A DNA stretch of 64,000 nucleotides from an uncultured Pseudomonadales bacterium (GTDB lineage Bacteria; Patescibacteriota; Microgenomatia; UBA1400; PJMF01), in contig CAZVBO010000001.1 of the NCBI GenBank assembly GCA_964625685.1, forward strand, positions 153,570 to 217,569, given 5' to 3'. Shown here piece after piece: positions 12,435 to 53,581 of this stretch. The notes beneath the pieces were generated by a model. It did no database searches and was not told the origin of the DNA. It saw only the letters and a list, made by a program, of their open reading frames with translations. The position numbers were made by a program, and so were the translations under genes. Position 1 is the first letter of the stretch. The number at the start of each line of letters is the position of its first letter.

Positions 12435-13038
12435 AGTCCCCCAAACCAAACGAACTTGTACTATTAAAAATGTAGCTATGTTTGGGAGTGCTGATATTGA
12501 CGAATTACATCCTCTCTATCAGGAAGCTTTCAAAATTGCCCGTTATTTGGCCTATCATGGCAAAGTGATTGTTAATGGTGGAGGTCCAGGAGTAATGGAT
12601 GCTTCGACTAAAGGAGCTCAAGCTGGTGGGGGAAAAACCATTGGAGTGACTTTTTATCCGAAAGATATGCCTGAATTTGAAGGTCGTTTCAATGACAATA
12701 AGGTAGATAAAGAGATCAAAACGGCCAACTATATTGAGCGGATGTTTGGGTTGATGGATCACGCAGATATTTTTGTTTGTTTTCAAGGGGGAACAGGAAC
12801 TTTGAGTGAGTGGACCACTGCTTGGTTGTTGGCTCATCTCTATTATGGAAATCATAAACCACTGATTTTATACGGTGGGTTTTGGCACAAGGTGATGGAT
12901 GTCATCATTGAGAACTTTTTTATTGGAGAAAAAGAACAAACTGTGTATCGAATTGCCGAAAATGAAGAAGAATTAATTGCGGCAATGAATGCATTTGAAG
13001 AGGAGTTGGAGCAACGATGCCAACTGCCTCGGGAATAG
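12418..13038 (+). CDS. LOG-family protein (cytokinin riboside 5'-monophosphate phosphoribohydrolase-like)
   Basis: GGGPGVMDA and FQGGTGTLSEW, the LOG/TIGR00730 motifs. The start is uncertain (12418 or 12478). Confidence 0.7.
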   Translation: MKTQIRVPQTKRTCTIKNVAMFGSADIDELHPLYQEAFKIARYLAYHGKVIVNGGGPGVMDASTKGAQAGGGKTIGVTFYPKDMPEFEGRFNDNKVDKEIKTANYIERMFGLMDHADIFVCFQGGTGTLSEWTTAWLLAHLYYGNHKPLILYGGFWHKVMDVIIENFFIGEKEQTVYRIAENEEELIAAMNAFEEELEQRCQLPRE

Positions 13039-13039
13039 T

Positions 13040-13954
13040 ATGCAAAAAGTTATTACTATTGGTTCTTCACTAGTTGATATCTTTGTCAAATCTGATGATT
13101 TCCAACTTCAGAAAACAGACAAGGGGGTAATGCTGTGTCAACAATATGGGGATAAGGTAGAATTGGATAGTTTTGATGTTTTTTCCGGAGGAGGAGCCAG
13201 TAATACAGCGGTAGGTTTTAAAAGAATGGGCTTTGATGCCTCTGTGATCAGTGAAACTGGGCGAGATATGTGGGCACAGTTTGTGATCAATGATTTTACC
13301 AAAGAACGAGTCAACGTTAATTTAATTATCCGCGAAAAAAAAGAAATCACTGGCGGTTCTGTAATTTTATTAGGAAAAGATGGGGGCCGAACCGTGATGG
13401 TACATCGAGGAGCTTCTTCGATGTTAGATCCTCATGATGTTCCAGTGGATCAGTTAAAAGAAGTAGATTGGGTTCATCTCACTAACACAGATGGTCAACT
13501 TAAGACGTTGTCACTTATTTTCCAAACGGTGGCAGAAGGTTCTGTGGGTTTATCCTGGAATCCAGGGAAAAAAGATATTAAACTATTAGTCGAAAATAAA
13601 TTAGCCATTCCTGAAAATGCTGTCGAAATTTTTCTGGTCAATCGAGAAGAATGGCAAATGTTGGAACCAAAGCAGGACGAGTTGTTCAATAAAATGAGAG
13701 TCATTGTGATCACCCACTCTCGGTTGGGTGGCCAAGTTTTTAAAGAAAAGAGTTTAGTAGTGGAGTATGACGTGGATGAAGTCAAAGCTATTGACGAAAC
13801 GGGAGCTGGAGATGCTTTTGGGGTAGGTTTTATTGCAGCCTATCTAAAAAACAAAGATCTTGAAGAGTGTTGTGAATGGGGAAAGAAAAATTCAGCCAGT
13901 GTCGTTCAACACTTAGGAGCCAAGGCGGGGCTATTATATAAAGAGAATCTCTAG
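13040..13954 (+). CDS. PfkB-family carbohydrate kinase (ribokinase-like)
   Basis: GGGASNTAVG (the N-terminal GG motif) and DETGAGDAFGVGF (the C-terminal ATP motif). Confidence 0.8.
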   Translation: MQKVITIGSSLVDIFVKSDDFQLQKTDKGVMLCQQYGDKVELDSFDVFSGGGASNTAVGFKRMGFDASVISETGRDMWAQFVINDFTKERVNVNLIIREKKEITGGSVILLGKDGGRTVMVHRGASSMLDPHDVPVDQLKEVDWVHLTNTDGQLKTLSLIFQTVAEGSVGLSWNPGKKDIKLLVENKLAIPENAVEIFLVNREEWQMLEPKQDELFNKMRVIVITHSRLGGQVFKEKSLVVEYDVDEVKAIDETGAGDAFGVGFIAAYLKNKDLEECCEWGKKNSASVVQHLGAKAGLLYKENL

Positions 13955-14063: not shown

Positions 14064-14122
14064 TCTGGCTTTCCTGCCTGCGCAGGCAGGCGCCAGATGT
14101 CTCCTCTTTAATAAGAGGAGAT
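14064..14122. terminator. Twin palindromes between convergent genes; the first contains the CCTGCCTGCGCAGGCAGG unit
   Basis: ATCTGGCTTTCCTGCCTGCGCAGGCAGGCGCCAGAT followed by TCTCCTCTTTAATAAGAGGAGA. They lie between the 3' ends of the PfkB kinase (+) and the Lon-like ATPase (-). Confidence 0.5.
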
Positions 14123-25130: not shown

Positions 25131-25145
25131 CATTTCCTGATATTT

Positions 25146-30196: not shown

Positions 30197-31288
30197 ATGA
30201 TGCCCCCAAAAGCTTCTTCATCATTGCTAGCTGGGATCCAACTGATGGGGTGGATTTTCATTCTGTTGATGTTTTTCGCGGAAAGTATTTTTTATCCTGG
30301 ATTTATTCAACTTCATATGGGGATAAATTTGGCTGTTTTGGGAGCACTCATAGTTATCGCTGAGTGGATTTTTTACTGGTGGTCTCAACCAGCATGGGCG
30401 TCTGTTGTCAGTAAATTCATTTTAAAATATGTTTTCCCAGGATTAAGTTTGATATCTGTATGGTTGGGATTGCTTGAACAAACTCATTTCCCAAATTATG
30501 TTTTTAGCACGTTTCATCTTCATCCCAGCATGTTTGCGTGGTTAGTTTTGATCGTGGGTGTGACGGGAATCAGTTTGTTGCCACTCAAAAATTGGCGTCT
30601 GCATGTAAAACAATGGCTGACTTGGTTACCAATGTACGTTGCTCTATTTTTATTACCATTGGCTGCCAATCATTTCTCTCTTTTCATGCAATTTGGCAAT
30701 GAGGATAGTTGGGTAGAGTATGGAACCTTTGGAGCATTTGTAGTGACTGCAATTCTTTCGGTCAAAATTATCCGTGAGTTGTGGCAACACCATGCTCGTG
30801 ATAGTATTTCGATTCTTCTGGCAGGTTGTATTTTAATGGGTGCAATTTTTAGTGCCGGAGAAGAAATTTCTTGGGGGCAACGACTCTTACATTTGTCTGT
30901 TCCTGCAGAATTTGAGGAAGAGAATGTTCAGCAAGAAATCAATATACATAATTTGAGGATCTTTATGGCTGATGATGGTTTTTACTATTTACAACCGATT
31001 ACAGCTATTTACTTATTAATCAGTTTTTATGCCTTAGTATTTTGGATGATTTCGCCTAAACTTCAAAAGTTATTCCCTCAATTTTCTCAGGCAATTCAGT
31101 TGATTACACCTCCACAATGGGTTATAGGTTATTTTTTGCCTATTTTTATCTATTCGCTGTTGCGAATTTTTACGGGGCCGCTGACGTATAAAGTCTGGGA
31201 AGAATTGGCTGAACTGTATTTTGCCATCGGGGTTGTGATTTTTGTTGGTAACTTTACCTTTTTCTCTTTCCAGAGTAAAATACAATGA
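30197..31288 (+). CDS. Hypothetical polytopic membrane protein
   Basis: A 363-aa ORF with about 10 TM helices, located in the glycosylation cluster. Confidence 0.45.
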   Translation: MMPPKASSSLLAGIQLMGWIFILLMFFAESIFYPGFIQLHMGINLAVLGALIVIAEWIFYWWSQPAWASVVSKFILKYVFPGLSLISVWLGLLEQTHFPNYVFSTFHLHPSMFAWLVLIVGVTGISLLPLKNWRLHVKQWLTWLPMYVALFLLPLAANHFSLFMQFGNEDSWVEYGTFGAFVVTAILSVKIIRELWQHHARDSISILLAGCILMGAIFSAGEEISWGQRLLHLSVPAEFEEENVQQEINIHNLRIFMADDGFYYLQPITAIYLLISFYALVFWMISPKLQKLFPQFSQAIQLITPPQWVIGYFLPIFIYSLLRIFTGPLTYKVWEELAELYFAIGVVIFVGNFTFFSFQSKIQ

Positions 31289-31295
31289 TTATTGA

Positions 31296-31480
31296 GCCTT
31301 CATAGTTTAACGGATAGAACAAAGGTTTGCCTGCCCGCAATGCCGTGAAGCGTCTATAGTTTAAGGGATAGAACAATGGTTTGCGGAACCATTAATCCAG
31401 GTTCGAGTCCTGGTAGACGCACAGACTAAGGCAGGCGGGCGGAACCTTCGATCCAGGTTCGATTCCTGGTGAGGGCACCA
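31296..31480 (+). tRNA. tRNA-Gly (anticodon GCC) interrupted at position 37/38 by about 111 nt that contain tRNA-Arg. The 5' exon is 31296-31331 and the 3' exon is 31443-31477 (+CCA)
   Basis: The 5' half GCCTTCA-TA-GTTTAACGGATAGAAC-A-AAGGT-TTGCC pairs with the 3' half ACCTT-CGAT-CCAGGTTCGATTCCTGG-TGAGGGC-A-CCA. The acceptor has 7 of 7 pairs and the anticodon stem AAGGT/ACCTT. The flanking intervening sequence forms a roughly 9-bp helix that sequesters the anticodon. Confidence 0.5.
31350..31421 (+). tRNA. tRNA-Arg (anticodon GCG as read) nested inside the tRNA-Gly intervening sequence
   Basis: A perfect 7-bp acceptor GCGTCTA/TAGACGC, D arm GTTT..AGAAC, anticodon stem ATGGT/ACCAT with loop TTGCGGA, and T arm CCAGGTTCGAGTCCTGG. 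Confidence 0.75.
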
Positions 31481-31570
31481 TAGTTAATTTCCAAAATCCA
31501 AATTTCAGAATTTATTAATGAACCATCTGGATTGGAAAATTGAATTTTGGTTTTTGGATTTTGAAATGGA

Positions 31571-31657
31571 GGCGGAGTGCCGGAGTGGTCTAACGGGCTG
31601 GTCTCGAAAACCACGCGATCCGCAAGGGTCACTAGGGTTCGAATCCCTACTCCGCCG
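31571..31657 (+). tRNA. tRNA-Ser (anticodon CGA), type II with a long variable arm
   Basis: Acceptor GGCGGAG/CTCCGCC, anticodon loop CTCGAAA, variable arm GATCCGCAAGGGTC and T arm TAGGGTTCGAATCCCTA. Confidence 0.75.
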
Positions 31658-31684
31658 CGTAGAAACTGAAACAGCTTTCTCAAC

Positions 31685-39634: not shown

Positions 39635-39677
39635 AGCTTAACTTTATGGGAAATGGAGTGGGTGGTAAAGAGAAGAG

Positions 39678-53489: not shown

Positions 53490-53581
53490 CGTCATCCTCG
53501 CGCCTGCCTGCGCAGGCAGGAATGCGGTGATCTGGAATGGCACAACCAATTTTCCAGATTCCCGTGTACACGGGAATGACA
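53490..53581. repeat. MITE-like palindromic element, copy 3 (subfamily A, carries the CCTGCCTGCGCAGGCAGG palindrome)
   Basis: GTCATCCTCGCGCCTGCCTGCGCAGGCAGGAATGCGGTGATCTGGAATGG...CCAGATTCCCGTGTACACGGGAATGACA. Confidence 0.75.

Follow-up and report, generated by a model that had tools for sequence, protein, structure and literature searches.

How does a bacterial cell make use of a transfer RNA (tRNA) gene whose anticodon is split by a second, complete tRNA gene? The question is raised by positions 31296–31480 of a 64-kb stretch of contig CAZVBO010000001.1 from an uncultured bacterium, here called the window. Coordinates are positions in this window unless a locus is named, and the L-numbered loci are contigs from scans of genome, metagenome and IMG/VR collections. 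The 185 nt consist, in this order, of a 5′ tRNA part, a GC-rich arm, a complete tRNA, a second GC-rich arm and a 3′ tRNA part. This nested tRNA-in-tRNA arrangement is real and is not an assembly artefact, since the identical 185 nt are present in five separately assembled runs (SRR13617036, 37, 40, 42, and 47). The explanation that we prefer, though tentatively and at somewhat less than even confidence, is that a resident tRNA gene was disrupted by a small, tRNA-carrying palindromic element of DNA, whose own tRNA is of the same kind and now serves as the working copy, the outer pieces being an unligated relic.

The outer gene starts with tRNA positions 1–34 (31296–31329, + strand), made up of the acceptor strand GCCTTCA, the D arm GTTT-AACGGATA-GAAC, the anticodon stem strand AAGGT, and the loop bases TTG. 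It resumes with positions 35–73 and an encoded CCA (31440–31480, + strand), which comprise the loop bases CGGA, the stem strand ACCTT, CGAT, the T arm CCAGG-TTCGATT-CCTGG, the acceptor strand TGAGGGC, A, and CCA. When joined in silico, the two segments form all 21 of 21 stem pairs (acceptor 7/7, D 4/4, anticodon 5/5, T 5/5) and carry T8, A9, GG in the D loop, the T loop TTCGATT, the discriminator A, and the encoded CCA. The insert between them measures 110 nt, 72 of which are tRNA, with 18–20 nt on either side. It opens with the C-rich terminus CCTGCCCGCA (31330–31339, + strand), an instance of the family consensus CCTGCCCGC[C/A] that is common to loci L115 and L090 and flipped in L094, L032, and L084. 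This is followed by ATGCCGTGAA (31340–31349, + strand), the spacer or leader of the inner tRNA, whose UGCC is predicted to pair with GGCA in the 3′ flank. The inner tRNA-Arg(GCG) is complete and lacks an encoded CCA (31350–31421, + strand). Its spacer or trailer CAGACTAA (31422–31429, + strand), read from the sequence, begins with CA, as in the stand-alone relatives and in the inner tRNAs of L115, L032, L084, and L090, and the G-rich terminus GGCAGGCGGG, delimited by family comparison, closes the insert (31430–31439, + strand). An earlier note on this DNA had claimed that a short segment with an intact tRNA-Arg at 31350–31421 splits the anticodon loop of another tRNA gene. Both parts are borne out, by the full cloverleaf of the halves and by the inner tRNA, which was recognized by ARAGORN as tRNA-Arg(GCG) and by the Rfam model RF00005 (66.6 bits, E 2.7e-12; gathering threshold 29 bits). 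ARAGORN run with its intron search, which that note had proposed as a check, did not report the outer gene.

Two further features set the outer gene apart. Among the five tRNA 3′ ends in the window, only that of the outer tRNA is followed by an encoded CCA (31478–31480); none is encoded after the tRNA-Val, both tRNA-Ser, and the inner tRNA-Arg (25131–25133, 31659–31661, 39674–39676, and 31422–31424, respectively). The same contrast, an outer gene with CCA around an inner gene without it, is observed in L084, L090, L048, and L070. The only variant seen is a T-to-C change at 31299, position 4 of the outer acceptor stem, which turns a G·U into a G–C pair; it is the sole difference over 1381 nt between the window and the assembly L020 (SRR13617045).

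Which tRNA has been interrupted depends in part on where the junction is drawn. As GC is repeated at both junctions, the outer junction slides by up to 2 nt. Removal of 31330–31439 leaves the loop TTGCGGA (join ...AAGGTTTG + CGGAACCTT...) and a valid cloverleaf that ARAGORN calls tRNA-Arg(GCG). Removal of 31332–31441 leaves TTGCCGA (join ...TTTGCC + GAACCTT...) and an equally valid cloverleaf called tRNA-Gly(GCC). The break lies at 34/35 (equivalently 33/34 or 35/36), and thus inside the anticodon, under the Arg reading, or at 36/37 under the Gly reading. The earlier note had placed it at 37/38 and had removed 31332–31442 (111 nt), which would leave an anticodon loop of 6 nt. It had also named the outer gene tRNA-Gly(GCC), an assignment that is unlikely. 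When the outer body, with the anticodon loop left out, was compared with 305 tRNAs, the best six matches were all tRNA-Arg (scores 52–57), and tRNA-Gly scored 11–40. The nine tRNA-Gly calls in the compared loci (eight distinct sequences listed) start with GC[GA]G and end with ...GCT, that is, with T73. A bacterial tRNA-Gly would be expected to have an acceptor starting with GCG and U73, and the outer gene has GCCTTCA and A73. A20 in the D loop, A or G at 73, and C35 are identity features of tRNA-Arg. The outer gene has the D loop AACGGATA, which resembles the AAGGGATA of the inner and stand-alone tRNA-Arg(GCG) genes, together with A73 and, under either junction, C35. A cut at the family termini gives TTG|CGGA, hence GCG, in the window nest. 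Because its body is closest to Arg genes, its D loop and A73 are Arg-like, and the amino acids of outer and inner genes match throughout the family, the outer gene is probably a tRNA-Arg(GCG), the same as the inner one.

The inner gene is the orthodox member of the pair. The window is bacterial, as testified by a transfer-messenger RNA (tmRNA) and a flavin mononucleotide riboswitch (Rfam), and its SufB is nearest to proteins of Patescibacteria (Pacebacteria, Woesebacteria, and Cerribacteria; 79–81% identity). A scan of the genome collection with a D-arm/anticodon pattern found the inner-type tRNA as a stand-alone tRNA-Arg(GCG) gene in three metagenome-assembled genomes (L005 4863–4935, L006 49–121, and L007 1885–1957). 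Apart from the acceptor stem, the body of the inner tRNA is identical to the genes of L005 and L007, with one further difference in L006. The outer gene differs from the orthodox tRNA-Arg(GCG) in the D, variable, and T loops, and the same scan yielded no second copy of the outer type. None of the three stand-alone loci has outer halves. A tRNA-Ser(CGA) lies near the Arg(GCG) gene in the window and in all three genomes, about 3 kb downstream of it in L005 and L007. Otherwise, these loci have no genes in common with the window. In the databases, the 363-residue gene upstream of the nest has no relative above 34% identity, and the downstream methyltransferase has none at all. To judge from these genes, the Arg anticodon GCG is normal in this group. 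The usual bacterial tRNA-Arg for CGU and CGC is of the ACG (inosine) type, and the GCG genes suggest that these codons are read without deamination of A34 in this lineage.

If the interruption is an intron, it shows the hallmarks of no known class. The minimum-energy fold of the 185 nt is a nested double cloverleaf of −69.1 kcal/mol in which both cloverleaves are kept; shuffled sequences reached −52.7 ± 4.7 kcal/mol (z = −3.5), and none of 200 was as good. The termini can pair as CCUGCC/GGCAGG, as GCCCGC/GCGGGC, or in a 9–10 bp helix with one U·G and one C·A. Of the flank pairing described in the earlier note, a 7-bp helix GCCUGCC/GGCAGGC does exist, but the competing register CUGCCCGC/GCGGGCGG is preferred by the energy model. 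The likeness that it saw to the anticodon-intron helix of archaea fails, as the bulge-helix-bulge motif (two 3-nt bulges, a 4-bp helix between them, and a splice site in each bulge) is absent from both pairing registers in the predicted fold and on inspection. The preferred fold has a single 3-nt bulge (U33 G34 C35) on the 5′ strand opposite an unbroken 14-bp 3′ strand, and the alternative register has a 2 × 7 internal loop. A group I intron would show a P3–P9 core and a length of about 200 nt or more. No Rfam match to such a core was obtained around the nest, at the gathering threshold or at E up to 10. As that note had also argued, the 110-nt insert is too short for this class, bacterial tRNA group I introns being 184–894 bp long (PMC13011429). 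Within the nest, Rfam recognized the inner tRNA and nothing else at either setting. No ribozyme (twister, hammerhead, or others) was matched in Rfam at E up to 10 in 31270–31580 or in L147:1540–1800, which holds tRNA-free copies of the arms, although the central tRNA might hide a split motif in the window. A suspected likeness of CUGCC..AAUGCC to the twister ribozyme was rejected, having no support in Rfam at the same E value. Among the 18 window open reading frames (ORFs) scanned against Pfam or NCBIfam, no family of RNA endonucleases, RNA ligases, integrases, or transposases was found.

The arrangement is not confined to the window. The metagenome scan looked for one particular inner T arm with a second T loop downstream, at a distance too short for a tandem gene; this design could find nested tRNA-carrying copies only. 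The majority of the 120 hits were compact tandem genes, 3′-half duplications, or chance matches, but at least five were further independent nests with the termini of the window. A tRNA-Ile(TAT) within a tRNA-Ile(TAT) broken at 35/36 is found in L115 and, flipped, in L094; a tRNA-Arg(CCT) within a tRNA-Arg(CCT) broken at 21/22 of the D arm in L090 and, flipped, in L084; and a tRNA-Arg(TCT) within a tRNA-Arg(CCT) broken at 35/36, also flipped, in L032. In the window, L115, and L090, which share one orientation, the insert reads 5′ CCTGCCCGC[C/A] ... GGCAGGCGGG 3′. In the three flipped loci, it is bounded by the reverse-complement pair, 5′ CCCGCCTGCC ... GGCGGGCAGG 3′. The spacers between arms and tRNA vary in length and sequence across the nests, save for the first 14 nt (CCTGCCCGCAATGC) of the window and L115 inserts, which also occur in a tRNA-free hairpin of L147 and L164. 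None of the six strict nests has a target-site duplication, and removal of the insert restores the outer gene to the base, whether it lies in the anticodon loop (34/35 or 35/36) or in the D arm (21/22). Outer and inner tRNA specify the same amino acid in every related nest. The outer genes of the six strict nests keep 20–21 of 21 stem pairs as well as the conserved loop bases, and all stem differences between inner and outer genes are compensated. The nest-bearing contigs range from 32 to 59% in G+C, and no gene family recurs beside the nests.

One detail concerns L090 (− strand), in which the outer D loop reads GCGGGACA against AAGGGATA, with five changes in ten bases, and the next 50 nt are the same as in the inner gene. 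The GGCGGG of this outer D loop is complementary to the CCCGCC of the insert, and it resembles the 3′ junction GGCGGGGAAC.

A looser group of nests (L037, L070, L125, and L140, together with L048 and L116) has the arms CCCGCC TAAATTTTT ... AAAAYTTT GGCGGG. In their outer genes, the D arm is damaged or the anticodon arm is gone, and the acceptor and T stems are intact. The L037 group comprises four orthologous loci, and their nest sits within a block of near-identity of about 0.6–1 kb, which makes them uninformative on selection on the nest. In L037 (543–846) and L125 (9660–9963), an Arg(TCG) nest is followed 40 nt on by a tRNA-Lys(CTT). This tRNA block of about 0.6–1 kb is near-identical, though the proteins of the upstream genes are only 59–88% identical, which suggests that the block may have been recently recombined or transferred.

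The same termini also occur without a tRNA. The scans of IMG/VR gave no nests, only chance matches in GC-rich phages and, in the contigs L147 and L164, intergenic hairpins of 33 and 36 nt with the nest termini, in both orientations (L164 3536–3568, 3684–3719, 4518–4550, 6462–6494, and 6545–6580; L147 1610–1642 and 1693–1728). Their sequences are CCTGCCCGC CAGTGCCAGGCGAT GGCAGGCGGG and CCTGCCCGC AATGCTTCGCAACGCGA GGCAGGCGGG, the second of which reads like the L115 insert minus its tRNA. In these hairpins, CCUGCC-CGCC pairs with GGCG-(A/AU)-GGCAGG and the terminal CGGG is unpaired, so that the conserved unit resembles that of repetitive extragenic palindromic (REP) elements, with a tetranucleotide next to an imperfect hairpin. 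They are found in nearly every intergenic spacer of L164, bordered by CTCTGTG/CACAGAG repeats, and adjoin genes for a methyltransferase, a glycosyltransferase, and two Mtd-like proteins (targets of diversity-generating retroelements). The hairpin contig is listed as viral; phage hallmark domains were not seen in the nine ORFs scanned.

Related palindromes are present in the window itself. The perfect 18-nt palindrome CCTGCCTGCGCAGGCAGG occurs three times, once as an in-frame insertion in sufC, where it encodes LPAQAG (2943–2960), and twice between convergent genes (14073–14090 and 53503–53520). The sufC copy is a clean 18-nt insertion relative to the closest relative, L172, which is without it (protein 86% identical), and it lies inside a loop 13 residues longer than in the SufC of Thermus. 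The palindrome was not found in 48 kb from three related genomes. The sufC insertion and this absence from relatives show that GC-rich palindromes have been inserted into the DNA of this lineage. With up to one mismatch, CCYGCCYGCC has 13 matches in the window against 3.7 expected. Taken together, the six nests, the copies in L147 and L164, and the three window palindromes show what REP elements and miniature inverted-repeat transposable elements (MITEs) show, namely an imperfect palindrome in multiple copies, in both orientations, and at unrelated sites. The arms of the nest differ from those of the perfect palindrome (CCTGCCTGC / GCAGGCAGG) by a T-to-C and an A-to-G change. These give C·A and U·G in the full-length register and a C–G pair in the GCCCGC/GCGGGC register, which is shifted by four bases. 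This one covariation favours the shifted helix, or two alternative helices.

These observations are best accommodated by the insertion of a tRNA-carrying palindrome. The element would consist of the two 10-nt GC-rich arms of an imperfect palindrome around a complete tRNA gene and a few leader and trailer bases (31330–31439), and it would have inserted exactly, without target duplication, into the anticodon of a resident gene of the tRNA-Arg(GCG) type. We infer from the orientations and the tRNA-free copies that it moved as DNA. Transcription from the promoter of the resident gene, for which a promoter-like site ending 15 nt upstream is a weak candidate, would yield a precursor, from which RNase P and RNase Z (or exonucleases) would release the inner tRNA-Arg(GCG) as the working copy, and the outer pieces would stay unjoined, a relic still intact. 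If the tRNA genes of a small genome are single-copy, an insertion into one of them would be tolerated only when it comes with a substitute. This would explain why inner matches outer, and it would also keep the host from shedding the element by sloppy deletion. A double-stranded DNA element would naturally have its termini in both orientations relative to transcription, which sits uneasily with a strand-specific RNA signal, and the damaged outer genes of the looser nests are expected if outer genes decay. We prefer this reading because the termini occur in two orientations, tRNA-free copies exist at unrelated sites, palindromes have been inserted in this genome, the outer genes have decayed in the looser nests, the inner gene is orthodox, and no known splicing signal is present. 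Of the three options raised in the earlier note, a tRNA pseudogene disrupted by a duplicated tRNA-Arg comes nearest to it, excision and ligation survives as its main rival, and a permuted tRNA is excluded by the gene order. Tandem duplication plus deletion, integrase attachment-site remnants, and inversion were also considered and rejected, as none yields a 5′ half, a whole tRNA, and a 3′ half with base-exact junctions.

Several observations weigh against a relic left by an insertion. The outer genes of the strict nests are well preserved, with 20–21 of 21 pairs and compensated differences, whereas in a small genome prone to deletions, a dead relic would be expected to decay, unless all the insertions are recent. 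Several outer genes carry an encoded CCA absent from the inner genes and neighbouring tRNAs, and the one polymorphism seen over 1.4 kb in one assembly strengthens a pair of the outer acceptor stem. Local duplication or gene conversion also accounts better than imported cargo for L094 and L090, whose inner and outer genes have almost the same sequence. No tRNA-carrying copy was seen outside a tRNA gene in a scan able to find nested ones only. We know of no transposase or recombinase for such 10-nt ends, and the match between cargo and target is without a mechanistic explanation.

The most serious rival, which we nevertheless consider doubtful, is a true bacterial tRNA intron of neither group I nor group II. 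The arms would form a helix at the base of the insert, a protein endonuclease (or RNase P, Z, or III with trimming) would cut out the 110 nt, and an RtcB-type ligase would join what is left of the outer gene to make a second tRNA-Arg(GCG). The inner tRNA would be processed from the excised piece, so that two tRNAs would mature from a single transcript. Splicing would explain the preservation that embarrasses a relic: each of the six independent nests has a perfect outer cloverleaf, its differences from the inner gene being compensated. Several outer genes encode CCA, and the predicted fold retains both cloverleaves. The termini are conserved, the insertion is exact and without duplication, and its sites vary but always lie in loops, as do those of the protein-spliced introns of archaea. 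The split tRNAs of Nanoarchaeum are brought together by GC-rich complementary sequences beside the tRNA halves. In L032, moreover, the outer CCT would add decoding capacity to the inner TCT. But there is no bulge-helix-bulge, and the two junctions lie opposite one another at the base of a single helix. The termini have either orientation and also form tRNA-free hairpins, both between genes and inside a coding sequence. Working splicing would make a matching tRNA cargo needless, and the outer genes of the looser nests could not function even after excision. To our knowledge, no bacterial machinery for protein-type tRNA splicing has been reported. A generalized form, to which we give the same minority weight, is a third kind of bacterial intron, present in Patescibacteria and other uncultivated bacteria, which would be protein-spliced, defined by a fixed GC-rich helix, located in the anticodon or D loop, and tRNA-encoding; the same machinery might clear GC-rich hairpins from other RNAs.

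Less probable still is that the outer halves are never rejoined and serve as a scaffold. The top half formed by the acceptor stem and T arm would offer tRNA-like ends to RNase P, CCA addition, and exonucleases and so stabilize or time the release of the inner tRNA, or would act as a decoy or regulator. This would account for the outer acceptor stem and T arm being perfect even in L048, L116, and L037, in which the anticodon or D arm is lost, and for the frequent encoded CCA. Just ahead of the outer 5′ end is a promoter-like site (TTTACC-17 nt-TAAAAT, 31253–31281, + strand; 9/12 matches in a consensus scan, ending 15 nt before the gene), but about two such sites are expected by chance in the region, so it counts as weak evidence. 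The perfect anticodon stems and loops of the strict nests are left unexplained, the ordinary tRNA genes in the window need no scaffold, and we know of no precedent for one.

We regard it as very unlikely that the nest is the left-over of two integrase-mediated integrations, one leaving a 5′ half upstream and the other a 3′ half downstream, followed by the loss of nearly all the element DNA. Among the scan hits, tRNA genes trailed by arrays of duplicated 3′ halves are indeed common, and some of them also have 5′ halves on the upstream side and junctions marked by a 3-nt ATA repeat (L021, L023, L035, L130, and L139). A tRNA-targeted integrative element, however, is expected to leave a 3′ duplicate and to bring kilobases of DNA with an integrase. 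Here a 5′ half is present too, the junctions fit to the nucleotide, only 18–20 nt lie beside the inner tRNA, these flanks are the two arms of one conserved palindrome, and no integrase gene is nearby. Finally, an assembly artefact or chance resemblance, for which only the general risk of repeats in metagenome assemblies could be invoked, has next to no likelihood given five identical independent assemblies, 21/21 stem pairs, a fold z of −3.5, and recurrence in other contigs.

A second class of nests was encountered in L021, L023, L035, L039, L069, L130, and L139. In these, a tRNA-Ile(TAT) is wrapped in one to three layers of its own 5′ and 3′ halves, with ATA repeated at the junctions (L021, − strand, about 12,570–13,320; L023 1894–2643; L130 5033–5782; L139 1–404). 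The contigs are bacterial, as judged by a tmRNA in L021 and L130. The intervening sequence has the motif AAGTGAGGAGCG...CCGAAYGC...ATTATAT, which gives the impression of a kink-turn or a box C/D pair, and its flanks extend the inner acceptor stem. At about 160–200 of L139, a tRNA 5′ half with the loop CTTGTC (Asp GTC-like) is followed by ATGACAAGCGAGGAGCG, as after the tRNA-Ile 5′ halves; the intervening sequence is thus not limited to one tRNA.

Downstream of the window nest, a long AT-rich hairpin (ttccaaaatccaaa...tttggattttgaaa, 31489–31566, + strand) fills the gap to the tRNA-Ser(CGA) at 31571–31658, and Rfam gave only chance matches to hairpin-type models for it. The neighbouring genes encode glycosyltransferases, a membrane protein of unknown function, a methyltransferase, and an HD hydrolase.

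If the nests are mobile insertions, they represent a compact selfish strategy, in which an essential single-copy gene is broken yet a replacement is supplied, and tRNA genes can travel as cassettes of about 110 nt. If the outer halves are rejoined, this would be the first protein-dependent tRNA splicing in bacteria and would bear on the origin of the split and intron-containing tRNAs of archaea. Since standard tRNA finders report the inner gene only, tRNA counts for Patescibacteria may in either case be incomplete. In the literature that we searched, we came across no account of one bacterial tRNA nested in another, and a 2026 survey of tRNA introns in Patescibacteria reports group I introns only (PMC13011429).

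Several known systems share part of this architecture. The group I introns in the anticodon loops of bacterial tRNAs, including those at 35/36 in Patescibacteria (PMC13011429), have in common with the nest the phylum, the region of the tRNA (34/35 to 36/37), and the fact of being missed by standard finders; they differ by their length (184–894 bp against 110 nt), by their catalytic core, and by an interior that is not a tRNA. The intervening sequences of 23S rRNA, which are removed by RNase III and left unligated, also replace a hairpin loop by an extended stem, and their removal may leave a fragmented but folded molecule. In the nest, by contrast, the interrupted RNA is a tRNA, which could no longer decode once cut in its anticodon, and the stem ends in another tRNA.

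REP elements and bacterial interspersed mosaic elements, MITEs, and the palindromic elements of Rickettsia are, like the nest family, short imperfect palindromes in several copies and both orientations, and the copies of the nest family are likewise intergenic, in frame in sufC, and within an RNA gene. The family differs from them by its arms of about 10 nt, by the lack of target duplication and of a transposase among the 18 scanned window proteins, and by copies that hold a complete tRNA at the hairpin tip, inside a tRNA of the same kind. We know of no report of tRNA-carrying copies for these palindromic families. In integrative elements that target tRNAs, too, the insertion hits a tRNA gene and comes with sequence by which a functional tRNA of that kind is maintained. 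The nest, however, supplies a whole tRNA and not a 3′ part, spans 110 nt without an integrase, and is nested rather than a tRNA plus a 3′ remnant.

The intron-containing and split tRNAs of archaea likewise have a short interruption, not self-splicing, in the anticodon loop or at a noncanonical site in the D loop, with GC-rich complements adjoining the tRNA parts, and the intron of archaeal pre-tRNA-Trp, which encodes a C/D box RNA, shows that intervening RNA can be a functional small RNA. The nest departs from them in its bacterial host, the absence of a bulge-helix-bulge and of a known endonuclease, the whole tRNA of the same kind inside, and the fixed termini in both orientations. By analogy, then, the nest would work most like a self-repairing tRNA-targeting element combined with a REP- or MITE-like palindrome, while it looks most like a split or intron-containing tRNA of archaea.

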